Source: Myxococcota bacterium
GTDB lineage: Bacteria; Myxococcota_A; UBA9160; JAFDDA01
Direction of reading: 5' to 3'
NCBI GenBank assembly: GCA_965228475.1
Contig: OZ245817.1
Coordinates: 2,112,001-2,176,000, forward strand
Length of the DNA: 64,000 bases
Shown piece by piece: positions 27,464-56,513 of the stretch (its first letter is position 1; each line of letters starts with the position of its first letter). Made by a program: the position numbers and the translations under genes. The notes under the pieces were generated by a model, which had not been told where the DNA came from, searched no databases, and saw only the letters and a list, made by a program, of their open reading frames with translations.

Positions 27464-30400
27464 CTAGCGGCGCCGGGCGGCTCCCGCTCGGGCGTTCTCG
27501 ACGAGCTCGCCGACGTCCCACCGTGCCGGCAGGCGGACGCGCTCGCCATCCCGGGTGCGGAAGATCAGGTGGCCCTCGCGCGCAGCGAACTCGAACAGCT
27601 CGCGCAGGATCTCGACGTCCCGCCGGCAGTACGCCTCGACCTGATCGCGCTTGCCCTCCCGCCACCAGGTGATCGATTGGAGCCCGTCGCCGGACTTGCC
27701 GACGCCGAGGGTCTCCTCGGCCAGGTGGGCCAGGGGCAGCCGATAGCCGAGCCGCGCGTGGATGGCGTCGAGCATGTCGAAGGTCGGGAGCTTGCGGAGG
27801 TCCTGGTCCGTGTAGCCGCGCAGGACGCGGTAGTCGAAGCGCGCGATGTTGAAGCCGGCGACGAGATCCGCGGCCTCGAGCTGCTCGATCAGGGCCGGGA
27901 CGTCTCCTTCGAAGAACGTGCGGTACTCGCCCGTCGAGGAATCCCAGGTCACGCCGAGGGCGACCCGCATGAGGTGCGTGTTGTGCCAGCCGCCGACCTC
28001 CTCGGCGCTGCGCTGGGTCTCGAGGTCGAAGAAGACCATGCGCGGTGCGGGCGCCTCGGGCTCCTCTTCGGGCGGCTCGGCGGGGGCGGCGCCGACGCTT
28101 TCCTTCGCGAGACCGGCCAGGGGCGGTTCGAGCGCGGGCAGCGGGGCGTGGCCGAGCAGCAGCTCGAGGGTGCGGAGGGCGGCTGCCTTGTCGAGGGGGC
28201 GATTGCCGCTTCCGCAGCGCGGCGAGTGGATGCACGCCGGGCAGCCCTCCTCGCACGCGCACTCGCCGATGCGTTCGCGCGTCGCTTCGAGCAGGGTCTC
28301 GAAGCGGTCGAACAGGCTCGAGACGAGGCCGAGGCCGCCGGGCGCGCCGTCGTAGAGGAAGATGGCCGCCTTCTTCAGCTGGGGATGGTGCTTGTGCGAG
28401 ATGCCCGCGACGTCGAGCCGGTCGCACAGGGCGAAGAGCGGGAAGAGTCCGAGCGCCGCGTGCTCGACGGCGTGGATGCCGCCCATCACGTGGCCCTTGT
28501 CCGCTTCGACGGCGGCGGGGATCTCGTCCGGGATCTCGAGCCAGACCCCCGTCGTCTCGAAGGAGCTCGGCGGGAGATCGAGGGGCTCGGTGCCGAGCAG
28601 GTCCTGGCCGTGGACGCGGCGCCGCTCGAAGCCGCGCAGGAAGGTCGTGACCTTCACGCGGCCCTCGACGAGGCGGAAGTTCCCGGCGGGCCGCGCGCGG
28701 TCGCGGGAGAGGATCTCGGTCTCCTTCTCCGTGAGCGCCCGGGTGTAGTAGTCGACCCGGACCGGCCGCACGCTCACGGTCTGTTCGGTCGAGTCGAGCC
28801 GCGTCACGAGGTACTGGCGCCCGCGGTGGAGGTAGATCGCGCCCTCGTGGCACTCGGCGTGGACGAGGCCGCCGCCGATCGAGCCGATCGTGCGCGGGCG
28901 CGCGCCGTCGCCCGAGACGTCCTGGATCGCGTAGCCCGAGCCGATGTTGCGGAGCGAGACTTCGCGGTGGGGGAGGCGGCGCGCCGGGAACCACTCGCGC
29001 TCGGTCTCGCTGCGCAGGAGGCGGCCTTCCTCCTCGAGCCGGCCGACCGCCTCCGCGACGCGCGGCTCGGCGAACCAGGCTTCGTCGCGCCGCAGGGCGC
29101 TCTCCGCCGCCGCGCAGGGCAGGTGGTTCGAGAGGATCTCGGCGTTGCCCGGATCGACCACGGCATGCTCGTAGGCACGGTCGACGAGCAGCTCCGGGTG
29201 GTCGGCCAGGTACTGGTCGAGGGCGTCCGGCTGGGCGATCAGGGCGATGGCCGCCTCGCGCTCGCGGCCGACGCGCCCGCCGCGCTGCCAGAGCGAGACC
29301 TGGCTGCCCGGGTACCCGACGAGGATGCACACGTCGAGGGCGCCGACGTCGATCCCCATCTCGAGGGCCGAGGTCGAGATCACCCCGAGGAGCTTGCCCG
29401 AGAAGAGCCGCTCCTCGATCTCGCGCCGCTCGGAGGGGAGGAAGCCGGCGCGGTAGGAGCTGATGCGGTCGGCGAGGCCGGGTTCGGCTTCGAGGATCCA
29501 GGTGTGCATCAGCTCGGTGATGCGGCGGGCCTTGGTGAAGGCGAGCGTCCGCAGCCCGGAGCCGACCGCCATGCGGAACAGGCGAGCCGCCGTCGTGTAG
29601 GGCGAGCCGTCCGGGTTCAGCATCCAAAGGTGCCGGCGCGTGCGCGGCGCGCCGTCGCGCACGATGACCTGGAACGGGCGGCCGGTCAGGTCCGAGGCGA
29701 GCTCGCCGGCGTTGGCGATGGTGGCCGAGGCCGCGACGATCTGCGGCTCGCGACCGTGGAAGCGTGCCACGCGCAGGAGCCGGCGGAGCACCTGGGCCAC
29801 GTGCGAGCCGAACACGCCGCGGTAGGCGTGGAGCTCGTCGACCACGACGAAGGACAGCTCGCTGAAGAAGCGCTCCCAGCTCGCGTGGTGCGGGAGGATC
29901 CCGGCGTGCAGCATGTCCGGCGTGGTGATGAGCACGTGCGGCGGGTCCTTGCGGGTCTTGCGCCGTTCGTTCTGGGGCGTGTCGCCGTCGTAGATCGCCG
30001 CACGGACCGGGACGCCCAGGGCCGAGGCGTCGGATTCGAGGCGGCCGAGCTGGTCCCGGGCCAGCGCCTTCAACGGGAACAGGTAGAGGGCCCGGCCCGG
30101 CGGGTCCGAGAGTGCCCCGCGCAGGACGGGGAAGTTGTAGACGAGCGTCTTGCCGCTCGCCGTGGGAGTGGCGAGCGCCACGTTCTCCCCGCGGTTCAAG
30201 GCCTCGAGCGCCCGGGCCTGGTGGACGTAGAGACGCTCGATCCCGCGCCGCTCGAGCAGGGGCTTCAGGAGTTCGAACCCCGCCGGAATCGCCTCGCTGC
30301 ATTCCGCGCCGCGCTCCGGGAGCAGGCGTTCGTGGCACAAGGCTTCGGCGAGCAGCGGGTCGCGCCCGAGCTTTCGTCGGAGATCGGCGATGTCGGCCAA
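27464..30400 (-). CDS. DEAD/DEAH helicase with DUF1998 (MrfA/Hrq1-like) fused to a C-terminal DEDD/RNase H-like exonuclease
   Basis: PTASGKT, DELH, SAT, QRGGRVGR, HAVEHA, C..CACEEGCPAC; then FFDLETQ, GFNIARFD, YCRRDV. Confidence 0.9.
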   Translation of the reverse strand: MADIADLRRKLGRDPLLAEALCHERLLPERGAECSEAIPAGFELLKPLLERRGIERLYVHQARALEALNRGENVALATPTASGKTLVYNFPVLRGALSDPPGRALYLFPLKALARDQLGRLESDASALGVPVRAAIYDGDTPQNERRKTRKDPPHVLITTPDMLHAGILPHHASWERFFSELSFVVVDELHAYRGVFGSHVAQVLRRLLRVARFHGREPQIVAASATIANAGELASDLTGRPFQVIVRDGAPRTRRHLWMLNPDGSPYTTAARLFRMAVGSGLRTLAFTKARRITELMHTWILEAEPGLADRISSYRAGFLPSERREIEERLFSGKLLGVISTSALEMGIDVGALDVCILVGYPGSQVSLWQRGGRVGREREAAIALIAQPDALDQYLADHPELLVDRAYEHAVVDPGNAEILSNHLPCAAAESALRRDEAWFAEPRVAEAVGRLEEEGRLLRSETEREWFPARRLPHREVSLRNIGSGYAIQDVSGDGARPRTIGSIGGGLVHAECHEGAIYLHRGRQYLVTRLDSTEQTVSVRPVRVDYYTRALTEKETEILSRDRARPAGNFRLVEGRVKVTTFLRGFERRRVHGQDLLGTEPLDLPPSSFETTGVWLEIPDEIPAAVEADKGHVMGGIHAVEHAALGLFPLFALCDRLDVAGISHKHHPQLKKAAIFLYDGAPGGLGLVSSLFDRFETLLEATRERIGECACEEGCPACIHSPRCGSGNRPLDKAAALRTLELLLGHAPLPALEPPLAGLAKESVGAAPAEPPEEEPEAPAPRMVFFDLETQRSAEEVGGWHNTHLMRVALGVTWDSSTGEYRTFFEGDVPALIEQLEAADLVAGFNIARFDYRVLRGYTDQDLRKLPTFDMLDAIHARLGYRLPLAHLAEETLGVGKSGDGLQSITWWREGKRDQVEAYCRRDVEILRELFEFAAREGHLIFRTRDGERVRLPARWDVGELVENARAGAARRR

Positions 30401-47402: not shown

Positions 47403-47479
47403 GGGAGGCGGAGTCTACCGGACGCCGCGGGCCGCTGCCCTCGAACGGTGCCGCTGGACAGGGCCTGGAAGGGATGGCA

Positions 47480-47507
47480 CGGAGGGAACGGTCGCCCGTT
47501 CCCTCCG
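47480..47507 (-). terminator. Hairpin just downstream of romR
   Basis: Perfect 12-bp stem CGGAGGGAACGG/CCGTTCCCTCCG with a 4-nt loop (GCGA on minus strand); no U-tract. Confidence 0.5.
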
Positions 47508-47510
47508 GCG

Positions 47511-49220
47511 CTATTCCTCTTCGCTGCCCGCCTTCATGCGCTCGATCTCTTCGCGCACGAGGGTCTCGGCCATCTTCGGGATGACCTCCCAGGCGACGGC
47601 TTCGATCTGGGCGAGGGCCTGCTTGACGACCTGCTCCGAGAGGTCGCTGAAGGCCTCCCAGGCGACCTTCTCGAGGCTCGCGTGGATCTGCTGCTGGAAC
47701 CCGGGCGGGAGTTCGGTCCCGGTGCCGTCGGAGACGGCGCTCGGGCTCGGCTCGGCCGGCGTCTCGGGCTCGTTCGTGCCGTGCGGCGGGACGTCGGCCG
47801 GCGCCTGGACGCGGAGCGGATCGGCGTCTTCGACGACCCTCGTCGTGTCCTCGCCACCCGTGGCTTCGGCCTCGGGGGCCGGGTCGGCGACGAGCTGGGT
47901 CGGCTCGACGTCGAAGCGTTCCGCCCCAGCCGGGTCGATCTGGATCGCCTCGCCGCGCTGGGCGTCGTCGAAACCTTCGCCCACGCCCATGCCCACGCCG
48001 TTGCCCACGGGCTCGGAGACGGGGACCACCTGGGTCGCATCGAGGTCCGCCCCGGCGGGCTCGGCCGTTTCGGGCTGGGCCACCGGCGGGGTTCCGCCCG
48101 CGGCGGGGCCGGCGAGATCGAAGCTCACGAGCGGGTCCGTCGCGTCGGGCGAGGGCGTCGCCGCCGGCGGCTCCGTTCCCAACGGTGCTTCCGCCGCCAT
48201 GGCGGCGTCGAGATCCTTCACGGCCGGCGCGCTCGGCGTCGCCTCGACCGCAGGGGCGGGCTCTGCGTCGACCGCGGGAGCGGGATCCGGGGTCTCGGAG
48301 GCGGGCGCAGCGTCGAGGTCGGTGACCTGGGGCGGGCTCGCCATGGAGAAGGTGAGGTCGGGCGCGGGCGGCGCCACTTCCGGGACCGTGCTGGCCATCG
48401 AAAGGTCCGCCGTCTCGATGTCGAAGCCGCTGTCGCCGCCGACGGTCAGGTCACCGCCGCCGGAAAGCTCGTCGGCGTCGTCGACGTCGTCGCCGTCGTC
48501 AGGATCGGCGAAAGAGCGTTCGCCCGGCGCGTCGAAGGCCGCCGCCTCGACGGCCGCGTCGAAGGCCGGATCCTCGGCCGTCTGGCTGCCGTCGAGCAGG
48601 ACCGTCTCGTCGGCGTGCCCCGGCGAAACGCTCGGGCCCGAGTCGCTCATCAGGTCCGCGCCGCCGAAGGGCGAGGTTTCCTCCGGAGCGCTGGCCGCGC
48701 TCGGAGCCGAAGAGGCTTCCTGGCCGTTTCCGCCGGACGCGCCGCCGGCGCCGGCGAAGAAGTCGAAGGCCGCGCCGCCCTGGTTGGCCGGCGTCTGGGC
48801 CGCGGCGGGCGGAGCGTCGATCTTCGCGGCGGCGTCGTCGCCCATCGGCGTCGACCGGGCGAGGAGCTGGTTCACCTGATCGACGAGGGCCTGGGCCTCG
48901 AAGGGCTTCGTGATGTGTCCGTCGGCACCGGCCTGGCGGGCCCGCTCGGCGTCGAAGGCTTCGAAGGTCCCCGTCAGGAGGAGCACGGGCATCTGCGCCA
49001 GGCTCGGGTCGCCCTTCAGGGCTTCGCAGACCTCGTAGCCGTTCTTCCCGGGCATCACGATGTCGGCCAGGACGATGTCCGGCCGCAGCTCCTGGGCGCG
49101 CGACACGGCATCGTCGCCGTTGTCCACCGTCACGAGCTCGATGTCCTCGTTGGCGAGACTGATCCCGACCACCTTCTGAATCGTCACACTGTCGTCCGCA
49201 AGCAGCAGGGTCTTGGGCAT
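47511..49220 (-). CDS. romR: RomR-like response regulator (REC - acidic Pro/Ala linker - conserved C-terminal helix)
   Basis: MPKTLLLADDSVTIQKVV..MPGKNGYEVCEALK..GTFEAFD..HITKPFE; C-terminal VAWEVIPKMAETLVREEIER; adjacent to valS. Confidence 0.8.
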   Translation of the reverse strand: MPKTLLLADDSVTIQKVVGISLANEDIELVTVDNGDDAVSRAQELRPDIVLADIVMPGKNGYEVCEALKGDPSLAQMPVLLLTGTFEAFDAERARQAGADGHITKPFEAQALVDQVNQLLARSTPMGDDAAAKIDAPPAAAQTPANQGGAAFDFFAGAGGASGGNGQEASSAPSAASAPEETSPFGGADLMSDSGPSVSPGHADETVLLDGSQTAEDPAFDAAVEAAAFDAPGERSFADPDDGDDVDDADELSGGGDLTVGGDSGFDIETADLSMASTVPEVAPPAPDLTFSMASPPQVTDLDAAPASETPDPAPAVDAEPAPAVEATPSAPAVKDLDAAMAAEAPLGTEPPAATPSPDATDPLVSFDLAGPAAGGTPPVAQPETAEPAGADLDATQVVPVSEPVGNGVGMGVGEGFDDAQRGEAIQIDPAGAERFDVEPTQLVADPAPEAEATGGEDTTRVVEDADPLRVQAPADVPPHGTNEPETPAEPSPSAVSDGTGTELPPGFQQQIHASLEKVAWEAFSDLSEQVVKQALAQIEAVAWEVIPKMAETLVREEIERMKAGSEEE

Positions 49221-49392
49221 GGTCCCCCCCGGAAGACCGGCGTTGCCGGTGTTTGAGCCCTGTGGTCTCATCGACGGGGCTCGCCGGCGAATTTAACGGT
49301 TTTTGCGCGCTCCTGAGCGGCTCTTGCCGGGGGCGGGCCGGCCGCGTCAAGTCACGCAAGTGCGCGGCCGATGGACTCTTCAGGAGCTCCTC

Positions 49393-50124
49393 ATGCGTTT
49401 CGAAACCGCCGCGATTTCCGACGTAGGCCGCCGGCGACAAGCCAACGAGGACCGCTACGCCCTCGATCCGGATCTGGGGCTTTTCCTGGTGGCGGACGGC
49501 ATGGGCGGGCACCGGGCCGGCCGGACCGCGAGCGAGCTGGCGAGCGCCGCCGTCCTGGCCGCCATCCATACGCTCCAGGACGCGCCCGCGAGCCTCGCCG
49601 AGCGGCTGCGCTACGCCGTTTCCGCCGCCAATCGCGAGATCTTCTCCATGGCCGCCGAGCAGGCCGAGCTCGCCGGGATGGGAACCACCCTGGTCGTCCT
49701 GCTGGCGGGCGACGAGCGGGTCAGCCTGGCCCACGTCGGCGACAGCCGCGCCTACCTCGTGCGGGCCGGCGGGATCCGCCAGCTCACCGACGACCACAGC
49801 CTCGTGGCCGAGCTCCTGCGCCGCCAGAAGATCACCGCGGACGATGCCCGCGAGCACCCCCATCGACACGTTCTCACGCGCGCCCTCGGCGTGCGCCCGA
49901 GCGTCGAGCCGGATCTCGCCGAGATGACGCCCCTCGACGGCGACGTCTTCGTGCTCTGCTCCGACGGCCTGACGAACCACCTGCAGGACACCGAGATCGC
50001 GAAGATCGTGAGCTCGACGTCGGTGCTGGAAGATGCGGCACGTGCGTTGGTGGAGTGTGCGAATTCACGAGGTGGAGAGGACAACATCACGGTCGTCCTC
50101 GTCCGGTCCCGGTCTCAAGACTGA
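49393..50124 (+). CDS. Stp1/PrpC family PP2C Ser/Thr phosphatase
   Basis: SDVGRRRQANED, VADGMGG, GMGTT, HVGDSR, CSDGL, GGEDN. Confidence 0.93.
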   Translation: MRFETAAISDVGRRRQANEDRYALDPDLGLFLVADGMGGHRAGRTASELASAAVLAAIHTLQDAPASLAERLRYAVSAANREIFSMAAEQAELAGMGTTLVVLLAGDERVSLAHVGDSRAYLVRAGGIRQLTDDHSLVAELLRRQKITADDAREHPHRHVLTRALGVRPSVEPDLAEMTPLDGDVFVLCSDGLTNHLQDTEIAKIVSSTSVLEDAARALVECANSRGGEDNITVVLVRSRSQD

Positions 50125-50256
50125 GCGCCGCGCGCTCGGGCAGGTGGGCCTTCCGGCTCATGGCTCGCCCGGCTAGCACTCATCGCACGGGTACGACTTG
50201 GTAGTCCCGGGCTGCGCTTTACTTCCCCGGAAGGCCCACCTGCCCGAGCACGCTCC
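50125..50256 (-). repeat. Structured repeat unit 1 (132 nt)
   Basis: Perfect 23-bp inverted arms 50134-50156/50227-50249; 18-nt cores at 50153-50170 and 50208-50225 flank a 37-nt insert. Confidence 0.85.
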
Positions 50257-50318
50257 CAGGCCGCTAGCGACTCCGCGCTCACGATAGAAAAAAACAAAGA
50301 GAGACTACGAGCCGTCGA

Positions 50319-50448
50319 GGAGCGTGGGAGGCTGACGAGGGCCTCAGGCGAAGTAAAGCGCAGCCCGCACTCGGCAATCAGAAACGTCTCGGCAGTTCGA
50401 CAGGGCGAGCCATGAGCCGGAGGCCCTCGTCAGCCTCCCACGCGGCGC
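50319..50448 (+). repeat. Structured repeat unit 2 (130 nt), inverted relative to unit 1
   Basis: Perfect 24-bp inverted arms 50322-50345/50420-50443; the same two cores (50350-50367, 50403-50420) flank a 35-nt insert. Confidence 0.85.
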
Positions 50449-50463: not shown

Positions 50464-51228
50464 CTAGCGCTCGGCCATCGCCTTGAGCCGGCTCCGCAGT
50501 CGGAGCACGGCCTTGGTGTGGATCTGGCACACGCGGGACTCGGTGATCCCGAGGATGTTCCCGATCTCCTTCATGTTCAGATCTTCGTAGTAGTAGAGCG
50601 AGACCACGAGCCGCTCCTTTTGCGGGAGCGAGGAGATCGTGTCCGCCACCACGTGCTTCATCTCGATCAGCTTGAGCGAAGCGAAGGGGTTCTCGGCCTG
50701 GACGTCTTCGATGATGTCCGTGTATCCGCCGGTGCGTTCGCCGTCGGCGTCGCGGCTGCGGATCTCTTCCAGGTTCACGAGCGAGATGCCGCGCACCTGG
50801 TTCAGCAGTTCGTGGAACTTGTCGAGCTGGATGCCGAGGGAGTCGGCGACTTCTTCCTCGTTGGCGGCGCGGCCGAGGCGCTGCTCCATGTCCGCGTAGG
50901 CGCGCTCGATCTTGCGGCCCTTCTGGCGCACCGAGCGCGGCACCCAGTCGAGGGATCGGAGCTGGTCGAGGATCGCGCCCTTGATCCGGAACTCCGCGTA
51001 GGTCTTGAACTTGCAGTTCTTCTCGGGGTCGTATTTCTCGATCGCGTCCATCAGCCCGATCACGCCGGTGTTGTGGAGGTCGTCGAGGTCGATGTGGGAA
51101 GGGAGCCGGACGGCGATGCGGTTCACGATGTACCGGATGAGCGGCGTGTGCTCGAGGACGATGCTCTCTCGCACCTGGTTGGTGATGCCCTCGCTTTTCT
51201 CCTTGGCCTCGCGCAGCATCGTTTCCAT
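50464..51228 (-). CDS. fliA: FliA/WhiG family sigma factor (sigma28)
   Basis: LPSHIDLDDL..GVIGLMDAIEKYDP..FKTYAEFRIKGAILDQLRSLDWVPRSVR..ITESRVCQIH; GGAGG RBS before ATG 51228. Confidence 0.9.
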   Translation of the reverse strand: METMLREAKEKSEGITNQVRESIVLEHTPLIRYIVNRIAVRLPSHIDLDDLHNTGVIGLMDAIEKYDPEKNCKFKTYAEFRIKGAILDQLRSLDWVPRSVRQKGRKIERAYADMEQRLGRAANEEEVADSLGIQLDKFHELLNQVRGISLVNLEEIRSRDADGERTGGYTDIIEDVQAENPFASLKLIEMKHVVADTISSLPQKERLVVSLYYYEDLNMKEIGNILGITESRVCQIHTKAVLRLRSRLKAMAER

Positions 51229-51322
51229 CGTCCCCTCCATTTGAACCCCCAGAAGTTGCGCGGTGGGCCTGGCGTCCCTGCCTAGGCTTTGCCCCCGCGA
51301 TGCGCCTTGGAGCAGGGGACAA

Positions 51323-51339
51323 AGCACGGCTCATGCCAA
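51323..51339 (-). promoter_or_regulatory. Sigma54 -24/-12 promoter upstream of fliA
   Basis: Minus strand TTGGCATGAGCCGTGCT, i.e. TGGCA..GC with exact GG-N10-GC spacing, about 95 nt before the start. Confidence 0.65.
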
Positions 51340-51593
51340 GCAGCAGAAACTTGCGGAGCGGGTGCGGGGCGCGGGCGGGGAGGACGCTGCCGGCGCGGGC
51401 AGGACGCGGTGGTAAGTCTTCGTTCGGATTGAGGAATCGGTCCGGGCGGCGGGCGGCGGTGCGGCGGGATTCAACCCGGGGTCGGGCTGCCGCGACGGGC
51501 TGCGGCCCATGCGGCCGTAGGCAAGAGCGTCGGGCCGCCGACGGGCCCGAGGGGCGAAGCGTCGGGATTCCGACCGCCCGCCGGGAAGCCGGG

Positions 51594-52979
51594 CTAGGGC
51601 TCGATCTCGAACTTCTTGATCTTCTCGAGCAGGGTGGTCCGGTTGAGGCCGAGGAGCTGGGCGGCCCGGTTCTTGTTCCAGCCCGTGAGTTCGAGGGCTT
51701 CGCGGATGAGCCGCGCCTGCAGGGAATCGACCACCTCGTTGAAGTTCAGGCCCTCGTGGGTGACGTGGACCTCGCCGCCGCGGGCCGTGCCCTGGCTCTC
51801 GCGGTACTCCGGGGGCAGGTCGTCGAGACCGATCTCGCCGTCGCGCCGCAGGATGACGAGGCGCTCCATCAGGTTCTCGAGCTCGCGCACGTTCCCCGGG
51901 AAGGGCTGCCGGCAGAGCACCTCGAGGGCCTCCGGCGAGATCCCCTTCACGCCGCCCCCGTTGCGCTCGCCGTGGGTCTCGATGAAGTGCGCCACCAGGG
52001 CCGGGATGTCCTCGCGCCGCTCGCGCAGGGCGGGGACGTGCACCGGAATGACGTTCAGGCGGTAGTAGAGATCCTCCCGGAAGCGCTTCTCCTGGATCAG
52101 CTCGGGCAGGTTCTGGTGGGTCGCGGCGATCACCCGGACGTCCACGGACTGGCTCTTCGAGGAGCCGACCGGCTCGAAGGTCCGCTCCTGCAGCACGCGC
52201 AGGAGCTTGACCTGGAGGTTCATCGACATGTCCCCGATCTCGTCGAGGAAGATCGTGCCGCCGTCGGCGAGGCTGAAGCGGCCCTCCCGGTGGGAGACCG
52301 CGTTGGTGAAGGCGCCGCGGACGTGGCCGAACAGCTCGCTCTCGAGCAGCTCCTCGGGGATGGCGCCGCAGTTCACCGTGATCATGGGGCGCCCGCTGCG
52401 CGGGCTGTTGTAGTGGAGGGCGCGGGCGATCAGTTCTTTGCCCGTGCCGCTCTCGCCGGTCACGAGCACCGTGCTGTCCGCGGCGCTCACGCGCTCGACC
52501 ACGTCGAGCACCTGGCGCAGGGCGTGGCTGTCGCCGACGACGTTGTCGAACTCGTAGCGGCTCTCGAGCTGCCGCTGGAGGTGCCGGTTCTCGGACTTCA
52601 GGCGGCCGTGCTCGATGGCCTGCTCGGCCAGGCGCCGGACGACGTCGAGGTGCCCCTGCTCGAAGGGCTTCTCGAGATACCAGAACGCGCCCGCGCGCAG
52701 GGCGTCGACGGAGCTCTCGGCGCTGCCGTAGCCCGTGATCACGATGCAGGGGAGGTCGGGCTGGATCTCGTGGACCTGGCGCACGAGTTCGAGGCCGTTG
52801 ATGCCCGGCATCTTGACGTCGGACAGGACGAGGTCGAGCGGCTGGGACGAGACGACCGCCATGGCCTCGCTCGCATCCCGCGCGGTCAGGACTTCGTAGC
52901 CGACCCGCTTGAGGATGCGTTCGAGGGCGCGCCGGTAGAGTTCTTCGTCGTCGACGACGAGAACGGTGACCTTGCGCAG
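51594..52979 (-). CDS. Sigma54-dependent NtrC-family response regulator (REC-AAA-Fis), probable CTG start
   Basis: Frame extends from track start 52862 to CTG 52979 (RKVTVLVVDDEE); GESGTGKE, GAFTNA, FLDEIG, FPGNVREL, HTH. Confidence 0.92.
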   Translation of the reverse strand: MRKVTVLVVDDEELYRRALERILKRVGYEVLTARDASEAMAVVSSQPLDLVLSDVKMPGINGLELVRQVHEIQPDLPCIVITGYGSAESSVDALRAGAFWYLEKPFEQGHLDVVRRLAEQAIEHGRLKSENRHLQRQLESRYEFDNVVGDSHALRQVLDVVERVSAADSTVLVTGESGTGKELIARALHYNSPRSGRPMITVNCGAIPEELLESELFGHVRGAFTNAVSHREGRFSLADGGTIFLDEIGDMSMNLQVKLLRVLQERTFEPVGSSKSQSVDVRVIAATHQNLPELIQEKRFREDLYYRLNVIPVHVPALRERREDIPALVAHFIETHGERNGGGVKGISPEALEVLCRQPFPGNVRELENLMERLVILRRDGEIGLDDLPPEYRESQGTARGGEVHVTHEGLNFNEVVDSLQARLIREALELTGWNKNRAAQLLGLNRTTLLEKIKKFEIEP

Positions 52980-54867: not shown

Positions 54868-55226
54868 AACCCGTTCTGTTGATCGTCGACGACGAGGTGC
54901 GCGTGCTCTCGGCGCTGCGCCGGGTGCTTCGCCGCGAGGGCTACGAGATCCTGCTCGCCTCGACTTCGAACGAAGCGCTGAGTCTGCTGGCCGAGCGCGA
55001 GATCGACGCCATCCTGTCGGACCACAAGATGCCGGGCATGAGCGGCATCGAGATCCTGAGCGAAGCGGCGCGCCAGCGGCCCGGAGCCGCACGGCTCCTG
55101 ATCAGCGGGTGGCCGGAGGCCGTGACCCAGGAGGAGCTCGACGCCCTCTCGATCCACGCGTTGATTCCGAAGCCCTGGCGCGACGCGGAGCTCAAGGCCG
55201 AACTCGCGCGGGCCATGGGCCGCTAG
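54864..55226 (+). CDS. Single-domain response regulator
   Basis: GTG 54864; KPVLLIVDDE, SDHKMPGMSG, LISG, KPW. Confidence 0.88.
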
Positions 55227-55232
55227 AACCGT

Positions 55233-56513
55233 TCAGTCGCGAACGACGACGCGGCTCAGGTACTCGAGGTCGGGCTTCTGGGTGTTCTTGGCGCCCACGC
55301 ACAGCACGCGGAAGCGGCGCTGGCGGCCGTGGGTGTAGTAGATGCGGCCCTTGCCCGCGAAGCCGAGTTCGAAGCACGGAAGGCCCGGCGGGAGCCCGCC
55401 GACCTTGCGCCGCACCGCCGCGTTCTCCGCTTCGTCGCAGAGCCGCTTGAGCGCCTCCTCGGCCTTGAGCTGCATGGTCTGGTCGCGCAGGCCGACGAGG
55501 TCCTGGAGCGCGCGGTCGTCCACCTCGAGATTCTTGTAGAGCGTGCGCATCCGGCGCTCGAGGAGTTCGGCCTCGCGGCCGGCCTTGCTCCCGGACTTGC
55601 CTCCCGGCGCCTTCTTCTCGGCTTTCTGCACGCGGCTGCGCAGGGAATCGATCTCGCTGTTCTTCTCGTCGAGATCGCGCAGGGACTCGTCGAGCAGCTC
55701 CTCCAGGGTATGGAGCTCGTCGTCGAGCTCGAGGCTGCGCGCGGCCTTGGCGGAGAGCTCCTCCTCACGCCGCGCGAGTCCGGCGAGCTTGTCCTGCAGC
55801 GCGCGGCGCTCGGCGCGCATCCGCCGGATCTCCTCGGCGTGGGGCGTCTCGGCCGGGTCGACGTCGTGGGCGCGCCGCCGCGCCGCTTCGAGCTCTTCTT
55901 CGATCTTGCCCGCACGGCGCGCCGCCTCCTCCCGCGCGGTCTCGGCCGAAGCGAGCAGGGCCTCCTCGTGGCGGCCGAGGGCGCGGGTGTAGAGGAAGAG
56001 CGCCCAGAGCAGGGTGGCCGCGTAGCCGAGCAGGATGCTCACCGCGAGGAGCGAGTTGTGGGGGACGGAGACGGCGACCTGGTAGCTCGCCGGCAGGATG
56101 GACGCCGCCTCGCGCGTGGCCGCCTCGGGGTCGAGGAGACCGGCCACCCCCGATGGGGCCGGGTGGATCAGCCGGCCGTCGGCGCCGTAGACGAAGACCA
56201 GCACCCGCACCCGGCCGAAGCGGATCCAGGGGCTCGTGGTGACGTCGCGGCGGATGGCGGAGCGGATCTCGTTGGCGAAGCCGGCGGTGCTCGGCTGGCT
56301 CGCGTCGACGGCGACCGCCCGCTCGACGGCCGCCTCGAAGCGCGCCTGGAGCACCCATTCGGCGGCTTCGACCGTGAAGATGTAGAGCACCGCGAAGGCG
56401 AAGATCGCGGCGTAGATCACCCGGAAGGAAGCGATCCGGTCCACGCCCCGAGCGGTGGCGGCCTCGGAGGCGCGGGGAAAGAAATTTCCCTTCTGCGGAA
56501 CGGACTTTTCCAT
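55233..56513 (-). CDS. Membrane protein: 2 TM + extracytoplasmic loop + coiled coil + RelE/HigB-like C-terminal domain
   Basis: ATG 56513; two hydrophobic helices; long heptad region; FELGFAGKGRIYY..VLCVGAKNTQKPDL. Confidence 0.65.
   Translation of the reverse strand: MEKSVPQKGNFFPRASEAATARGVDRIASFRVIYAAIFAFAVLYIFTVEAAEWVLQARFEAAVERAVAVDASQPSTAGFANEIRSAIRRDVTTSPWIRFGRVRVLVFVYGADGRLIHPAPSGVAGLLDPEAATREAASILPASYQVAVSVPHNSLLAVSILLGYAATLLWALFLYTRALGRHEEALLASAETAREEAARRAGKIEEELEAARRRAHDVDPAETPHAEEIRRMRAERRALQDKLAGLARREEELSAKAARSLELDDELHTLEELLDESLRDLDEKNSEIDSLRSRVQKAEKKAPGGKSGSKAGREAELLERRMRTLYKNLEVDDRALQDLVGLRDQTMQLKAEEALKRLCDEAENAAVRRKVGGLPPGLPCFELGFAGKGRIYYTHGRQRRFRVLCVGAKNTQKPDLEYLSRVVVRD

Follow-up and report, generated by a model that had tools for sequence, protein, structure and literature searches.

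A pair of back-to-back hairpins between two convergent genes of a Myxococcota bacterium was found to belong to a dispersed family of long-stem elements, which we consider to be probably a non-autonomous, inside-out, giant REP/BIME-like ssDNA element served by a putative trans-acting enzyme. The pair is located at positions 50125-50448 of the window, which is the entire 64,000-nt stretch of contig OZ245817.1 that was analysed, in a genome (G000) of one contig of 5.0 Mb with 70% G+C and 96% completeness. A description of the family was not found in the literature searched, with most subscription papers and supplements lying outside that search.

Anatomy of the doublet

The doublet occupies the gap between a PP2C-family protein phosphatase gene (49303-50124, plus strand) and a gene for a sigma-70 family sigma factor with regions 2, 3 and 4 (50464-51327, minus strand), which we take to be FliA-type. 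Both are flanking host genes whose start codons were not fixed, and a sigma-54-type activator gene adjoins the sigma factor gene (window 50464-52862). Unit 1 folds on the minus strand as a hairpin of 50130-50253 with a 27-bp stem containing one G.T pair. Its 5' arm (50227-50253), G-rich on the folding strand, is followed by core A (50208-50225), which forms the left side of an internal loop and of the inner stem, a variable insert of 37 nt (50171-50207) that serves as a dispensable cap, core B (50153-50170), in which the inner stem is followed by the right-hand loop side and the first part of the 3' arm, and the 3' arm itself (50130-50156), ending 5 nt from the PP2C stop codon. A GGAG foot resembling a REP tag lies at the 5' base of the stem (50253-50256, minus strand). 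Unit 2 folds on the plus strand, where a GGAG foot (50319-50322), again at the stem's 5' base, leads into a hairpin of 50322-50443 with a 28-bp stem and one mismatch, composed of the 5' arm (50322-50349), core A (50350-50367), an insert of 35 nt (50368-50402), core B (50403-50420) and the 3' arm (50416-50443), whose end is 20 nt away from the stop codon of the sigma factor gene. The two units are separated by a linker without assigned strand (50257-50318) containing an A-rich run at about 50286-50304, and an A-rich linker is also present in the orthologous gap of a congener (G001). No promoter-like site was found in the PP2C-sigma gap of the window.

This layout had been proposed in a preliminary description made from the sequence alone, and a re-reading of the sequence agreed with its coordinates, cores and inserts: the two 18-nt cores are identical between the units, the longest perfectly paired runs of the arms are 23 and 24 bp as described (the full stems of 27 and 28 bp each including one non-Watson-Crick pair), the inserts have the sizes and positions given there, and the units, on opposite strands (minus for unit 1, plus for unit 2), diverge between convergent genes. 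None of 200 shuffled sequences matched the fold of either unit on either strand, as RNA (z of -5.2 to -7.7) or as DNA (z of -5.3 to -6.7). Pairing of the cores across the units, suggested as an alternative fold, is possible on paper, but when the whole 336 nt were folded, neither the minimum-energy nor the centroid structure contained it; both consisted of two separate hairpins, for DNA and RNA alike. The linkers of the other two doublets of this genome (G000:C1 1389452-1389572 and 4018049-4018160) contain a bidirectional terminator-like hairpin with similar centres, which places the units there between a stop codon and a terminator.

Copies in the window genome and in related genomes

Both cores were searched for in the genome and its relatives, as the preliminary description had suggested, and a family of 16 copies in the window genome emerged, with model hits in 65 of the 150 genomes searched from the order. 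Core A occurred 15 times at no more than one mismatch in the window genome, each time followed by core B and within arms of its own. A profile search gave 20 hits, adding a sixteenth copy and one half copy, and a covariance model also returned 16 copies. They include three back-to-back doublets, and all are extragenic by the gene calls made here, one overlapping a doubtful call. In other genomes, the exact core A pattern was found within the order in 16 of 64 genomes and outside it in 3 of 337, the latter three being single matches to core A only. The covariance model had hits at E<=1e-6 in the above 65 genomes, among which weak single hits were only partly inspected, and none in the other 85. 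A scan of a genome collection with a pattern that demanded 30-60 nt between the cores, and so misses variants outside that range, gave 19 loci with titles of Myxococcota, Deltaproteobacteria or, once, Desulfobacterales; 35 loci were obtained from a metagenome collection, and a scan of viral contigs for the element gave 0 matches. The number of copies per genome ranged from 1 to 40 and the element size from 95 to 190 nt.

A search for long stems that made no use of the cores recovered the same copies in the window genome, together with sister families of the same build with other cores. On G000:C1, family B was found at 1259032, 1955029/1955182, 2046523, 3261556, 3270546, 3364185, 3436107/3436260 and 4495530, family C at 27666, 30998 and 1252902/1253074, family D at 680757/680985, and family F at 207610/207850, 4317731 and 4319911. 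In these four, the arms of 22-33 bp are copy-specific, the conserved inner cores differ from those of the present family, the feet are similar and back-to-back doublets occur; family E (197094, 2033525 and 4473200) has conserved arms with a variable tip. Variant forms were also seen in other genomes. At L097:1460-1606 and L117:1463-1604, the same core is set in longer, less G+C-rich arms with GNA-capped hairpins in the insert, and the outer arm ends resemble what we take to be IS terminal repeats. In relatives, the PP2C-sigma gap and other places also contain small repeats, REP-like or tandem, that bear GNA-type mini-hairpins and some of which have short words in common with the cores (L131, L134, L137, L145, L150 and L322). 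One copy (L297:669-2111, genome G120) apparently falls within the 5' part of a long minus-strand open frame, probably upstream of the true start.

Conserved loop and covarying stem

Each unit of the family is built of an NNAG foot, a stem of ~27 bp, a near-invariant 13x9 internal loop, an inner stem of 2-5 bp and a cap. In an alignment of 31 sequences, 95.1% of 961 cells were paired and 290 had changed on both sides; this level of pairing was reached by 0 of 500 shuffles, and no slid register came near it. This covariation speaks for the structure being a selected one, as the preliminary description had held, and the one-strand bias of G.T pairs described below supports the same. Stem length had a median of 27 bp with a 10-90% range of 24-31 bp among 153 distinct copies. 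Arm identity between copies of the window genome was 0.50-0.55, and the arms fit a loose G-rich consensus (0.50 vs 0.39 in shuffled sequences), which marks them as part of the element and not as DNA captured from a target.

Both sides of the internal loop were nearly invariant in 115 copies, most of which had been found through the cores themselves. The inner stem covaries among GCCC/GGGC, GGCC/GGCC and GGGC/GCCC, and beside the outer stem tandem G.A pairs are swapped against Watson-Crick pairs. Among the 153 copies, the NNAG foot was present at the 5' end in 82 vs 9 at the other end, with GGAG in 30, CGAG in 21 and GTAG in 5, and no conserved upstream sequence was found beyond it. A complementarity between the foot and the start of the insert, seen by eye in 3 of 9 tagged copies of the window genome, did not covary and was dropped.

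Folding strand and molecule

Outer-stem mismatches read on the core-forward strand comprised 99 G.T vs 12 A.C in the 153 copies with the innermost six pairs left out, and 22 G.T vs 10 A.C in a smaller count of 80 copies; these counts, like those of triloops and covariation, come from related copies, and their independence is overstated. PMC5941160 and PMC8604942 describe template switching as able to make arms uniform and to invert spacers. As the sole cause, operating without selection, it was rejected: the residual mismatches are strand-biased, which template switching alone leaves unexplained, and so, judged from sequence comparison, the fold is selected on one strand, the core-forward one.

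The 3' end of the element faced a stop codon at a distance of 2-73 nt in 14 of the 16 copies of the window genome, the folding strand being opposite to that gene, where a share of about 0.33 was expected from the rough gene calls made here. Among 64 other copies examined, the same was seen in 43 of the 48 with a gene no more than 150 nt away on the relevant side. Both neighbouring genes run against the folding strand in 7 of the 16 copies, so that no neighbouring mRNA carries the fold there. With respect to replication, the copies were divided 10 vs 6 between the strands, and a leading/lagging bias was not significant.

DNA is favoured over RNA as the folding molecule. Minimal copies, described below, are mostly capped by GNA triloops, which are a DNA mini-hairpin motif whose RNA counterparts are much less stable, as stated in PMC13037366. 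Against a DNA-only reading, GNRA was enriched in the inserts as much as GNA and 2 of the 10 triloops were AAA; the G.T tolerance fits RNA (as G.U) equally. Searches of the region and of 18 other loci against Rfam 15 gave only sub-threshold hairpin matches, with no family at its gathering score. The suggestion of a noncoding RNA or ribozyme-like motif is accordingly disfavoured by the Rfam comparison and by the DNA-type triloop caps. Kink-turn and known ribozyme cores, compared by eye, did not fit. Contigs of one RNA sequencing run showed only distant organisms and had no cover at 50152-50435, so that they carry no information on expression. In the contigs compared, from four sequencing runs, one joint skipping 381 nt, with a side of 23 letters, was probably derived from another organism.

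The insert as a neutral cap

Insert lengths are narrow in the window genome (35-38 nt) and extend from 3 to over 90 nt across the family, and the insert is absent in minimal copies. The two inserts of the doublet, described at first as unrelated, are indeed hardly alike when compared with each other (identity 0.45 vs 0.40 shuffled), but the inserts are homologous family-wide, with a mean identity of 0.56 vs 0.40 in shuffled sequences over the 16 copies, and that of unit 2 is 0.78 identical to the insert of another copy. In four of the five closest orthologous pairs, identities of the insert and of four-fold sites were 0.90/0.93, 0.79/0.83, 0.84/0.81 and 0.74/0.70, suggesting that the insert drifts at about the synonymous rate and is thus about neutral. 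The cores at orthologous sites were identical at 237 of 242 positions over 11 pairs, where four-fold sites ranged from 0.54 to 0.93.

In the fifth pair (L103/L116), the arms match and the insert is closer to that of a copy at another site (0.76 vs 0.49). Likewise, L098 and L050 had an arm identity of 0.96 and an insert identity of 0.57, so that arms were retained while inserts were swapped in both L103/L116/L109 and L098/L050. Arm and insert identities in the window genome were uncorrelated (r -0.10). We infer that core-plus-insert is occasionally exchanged between copies, probably by recombination.

Of 192 genomes searched without bias for short spacers, 34 contained matches, 53 in all, and the reversed control gave 13. 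Thirty of these loci were examined and arms were present in 11, giving minimal copies of about 95 nt, of which 10 had a triloop cap closed by C-G (GAA in 6, GTA in 2 and AAA in 2) and none a tetraloop cap. Inside the longer inserts, GNA triloops numbered 8 on the forward and 1 on the reverse strand with 2.4 in shuffles, and GNRA tetraloops 7 and 1 with 1.4 in shuffles. Inserts had no match better than E=1 among 50,697 phage and 72,556 plasmid records, and their self-matches in their own genome equalled those of shuffled controls. With comparisons to phage, plasmid and self thus at chance level throughout, and with neutral drift, lengths of 3 to over 90 nt and insert-less copies, the proposal of a guide-like scaffold with a variable loop was not supported.

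Gain, loss and persistence of copies

The congener G001 had 39 core B matches, of which 32 were examined. For 21 of its copies both flanks were syntenic in the window genome, and 15 of these (at 13 sites) were empty there and 6 filled. Two empty sites lie in the window itself, at about 47418-47527 and 55208-55258, the corresponding copies in G001 being L170 and L173. The copy at G000:C1 4820300-4820424, one of the six filled cases, is reversed relative to its counterpart in G001 (L162) and has its foot-like motif at the opposite end, which may reflect either a core inverted within its arms or two separate insertions. The PP2C-sigma gap contains a doublet in both genomes, with different arms and inserts and each with the core variant of its own genome. 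Among 28 further relatives, in which three gap loci ended or differed before the PP2C gene and one was read for 500 nt only, G007 had one copy in the gap, and the other 27, among them the carrier genome G006, had no long-stem element there. The same heterodoublet was found to recur at several sites in G001, G013, G021 and G190. From these genome comparisons, the element is taken to be mobile, with copies gained and lost between related genomes and long-lived at some sites.

No signal of target-site duplication was obtained: the longest word shared by the two flanks averaged 4.24 vs 4.10 +/- 0.13 nt in shuffled pairings (n=80), although in old copies a duplication may have decayed. The sequencing-run contigs compared contained no junction indicative of excision or of a circle. 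The multiple copies, their extragenic position, the filled and empty orthologous sites and the recurring doublets speak for the REP/REPIN/MITE-type element with an enzyme encoded elsewhere that was among the readings of the preliminary description.

Search for the moving enzyme

The linked genes proposed as candidates, namely RAYT/TnpA, IS110 or reverse transcriptase genes, were not found in the window genome. It contained no match to Y1_Tnp, also with our own Y1 profile made from 28 proteins of relatives, or to RVT_1, Transposase_20 (IS110), DDE_Tnp_1, Y2_Tnp (IS91) or OrfB_IS605; four tyrosine recombinases are encoded. Among the Y1 loci of relatives, of which a part comprising 30 was inspected, none was flanked by the element, and Y1 presence in carrier genomes (4/12) and others (22/49) indicated no association. 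One of the 133 examined proteins encoded next to copies was a transposase and none was a RAYT or tnpA-REP, and the genes enclosed by outward-facing copies were ordinary or unnamed. An IS91-type fragment about 300 nt from one copy in G032 was seen at 1 of 9 loci and taken as chance.

A complete IS5-family element, with a CTAG duplication, terminal repeats and a DDE transposase, was found at L098:237-1437, with a copy of the hairpin located between the transposase stop codon and the right end. Relatives of this transposase were found in 17 of 225 genomes of the class, most with a plain 3' region of ~100 nt. In several such elements (L196-L199, L205, L207 and L208), the plain region keeps a small CGCCC/GGGCG hairpin and a C-rich tail, which by eye faintly recalls core B and the 3' arm. 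IS5 elements of three genomes belonging to one genus, G193 (L200, L213, L217, L219, L221, L222 and L235), G189 (L201) and G169 (L212), contain a sister long-stem hairpin at the same 3' place; in G193, it is present in six identical IS copies and one decayed copy and occurs only with IS5 ends. An IS5 end within 120 nt downstream was found for 1 of the 153 copies of the family, and the L098 hairpin is therefore read as a passenger. IS5 elements are a possible horizontal vehicle for the hairpins.

Comparison with known repeat systems

The closest known systems are the GTAG-tagged REPs, above all GTAG-3/-14/-15 (Di Nocera 2013, PMC3733652), and the group 2 REPs (PMC8266576; subclass 2.2 in PMC6006769), which have in common with the element an extragenic position behind coding regions, a foot tag, strand-specific features, heterodimers of opposite orientation and the order of stem, unpaired zone, inner stem and loop. 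GTAG-3/-14 REPs are depicted in PMC3733652 with a tag foot, a stem, an unpaired zone, an inner stem of GC/GGC type and a variable loop, and TnpA-REP acting on group 2 REPs is described in PMC8266576 as reading the tag and bulge on one folded strand, the upper stem-loop being non-specific. The element differs from the GTAG REPs in its stem (27 bp vs 6-13 bp), its size (95-190 nt vs 20-40 nt), its free stem sequence with an invariant internal loop where those REPs conserve the stem sequence, and its number per genome (1-40 copies vs hundreds). Its tag is NNAG (GGAG or CGAG, with GTAG in 5 of 153), whereas the REP superfamily has GT[AG]G. A flanking RAYT/tnpA-REP gene, which accompanies REPs and REPINs, was not found in the window genome, at the 30 Y1 loci or among the 133 neighbours. 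The multi-copy extragenic palindrome that characterizes REPs is seen in the 16 copies of the window genome, and where REPs and REPINs have strand-specific binding and cleavage of the folded ssDNA by an HUH enzyme, the element shows a strand asymmetry in its sequence.

REPINs and BIMEs moved by RAYTs (Bertels and Rainey 2011, PMC3337134) resemble the element as non-autonomous foldbacks of ~100 nt with a variable centre, gain and loss of copies and doublet units, the last two being seen here as three doublets in the window genome and 15 of 21 sites empty between relatives. REPINs, however, have conserved ends made of two short palindromic REPs around a varying spacer, while the element has free, non-palindromic arms and a conserved inside. 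The element is not a canonical member of the REP/REPIN group. The bacterial MITEs ERIC, Correia, RUP and bcr1 (Delihas 2011, PMC3184786) are similar in size, hairpin, position 3' of genes and filled/empty sites, and compensatory changes reported for bcr1 are found here likewise; the element differs in having no terminal inverted repeat common to its copies, no signal of target duplication and no matching autonomous IS other than the one passenger case (L098). The adjacent reverse transcriptase of retron msr-msd systems has no equivalent here, with no RVT_1 in the window genome and unrelated neighbours, and neither a target-matching segment nor a linked effector, as in CRISPR or bridge-RNA guides, was observed.

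Proposed mechanism and alternative explanations

For a REP/BIME-like ssDNA element of this kind, we propose that the core-forward strand would fold as single-stranded DNA, for example on the replication-fork template, and that a trans-acting protein, most plausibly an HUH-type nuclease or transposase, would act on it as TnpA-REP does on group 2 REPs. The putative enzyme would read the internal loop and the foot, and cut and re-insert a unit or a doublet. Arm sequence may be free because the enzyme would need only a perfect duplex of fixed length between the loop and the foot, and the arms would change in mirror under selection for pairing, helped by template switching. Core-plus-insert would be exchanged between copies now and then by recombination, and IS5 elements carrying hairpins as passengers may provide a horizontal route. 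Since no enzyme of the families searched was found in the window genome, the copies there may now be immobile. Counting against this reading, the invariance of the cores (237/242) at old sites would need per-copy selection or frequent conversion beyond selfish copying alone.

That invariance would suit a domesticated DNA site for a host protein (a primase/PriA-type single-strand initiation signal, a topoisomerase or a nucleoid protein), maintained locus by locus through host selection and spread through recombination or gene conversion without a transposase. Such a site would be in line with the arms kept at loci with swapped inserts, with the absence from the window genome of a mobile enzyme among the families searched, and with the C(GAA)G mini-hairpins that PMC13037366 reports in the RSF1010 ssiA primase signal and the phage G4 origin. 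We regard it as quite improbable, however, given that 85 of 150 genomes of the order lack a model hit, 15 of 21 sites are empty between congeners, a leading/lagging bias is not clear (10 vs 6), and more than one host protein would be required to account for the sister families, with their different cores, in a single genome. Core conservation at old sites is equally compatible with a multi-copy structured RNA, a small antisense RNA or ribozyme-like molecule transcribed from the core-forward strand so as to be antisense to the neighbouring genes at their 3' ends, in which the loop binds a protein or catalyses and the arms only pair. The one-strand covariation with its G.U tolerance, the tandem G.A vs Watson-Crick swap adjoining the stem, the GNRA enrichment in inserts and the fixed orientation to stop codons (14/16 and 43/48) would all suit an RNA, which we still hold to be unlikely: minimal copies are capped by triloops and not by RNA tetraloops, no promoter-like site in the gap or conserved upstream sequence past the foot was found, copies are patchy at orthologous sites and lie beside unrelated genes, and no Rfam family reached its gathering score.

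An origin of the hairpins in IS5-family elements is very unlikely. On this view they would be subterminal modules that the IS inserted at CTAG sites, often TAG stop codons, and that stayed behind once the IS decayed. The whole IS5 element containing the hairpin at L098 and the IS5 elements with a sister hairpin at the same place in G193, G189 and G169 agree with such an origin, but the latter three cases represent one genus, a single copy of the 153 has an IS5 end close by, the plain 3' region prevails among related IS5 elements, 80 copies gave no target-duplication signal, the distance to the stop codon varies from 2 to 73 nt and no such transposase is encoded in the window genome. A guide or spacer scaffold of CRISPR-like or bridge-RNA-like type, in which the insert specifies a target, has been largely refuted and is scarcely credible, even with the narrow insert length in the window genome and the occasional swapping of inserts between loci, in view of the phage, plasmid and self comparisons, the homology of the inserts and their drift at the four-fold-site rate in four of five pairs, the insert-less copies, and the lack of IS110 or RT matches in the window genome.

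Returning to the inside-out REP/BIME-like element, we tentatively raise the broader possibility that it represents a class of ssDNA mobile elements, the sister families of the window genome included, in which a fixed internal loop is the enzyme site, the 27-bp stem is a sequence-free ruler and core-plus-insert is exchangeable, with an enzyme outside the RAYT, IS200/605, IS91, IS110 and DDE groups. The near-perfect covariation and G.U tolerance seen here, which most likely stem from a DNA hairpin, call for caution in RNA discovery. The minimal copies of about 95 nt with a triloop cap are a small, testable bait for a binding protein. If the preferred reading is true, the REP/REPIN concept would be widened to recognition of an internal loop with a free stem, and the element would point to an ssDNA-processing protein.
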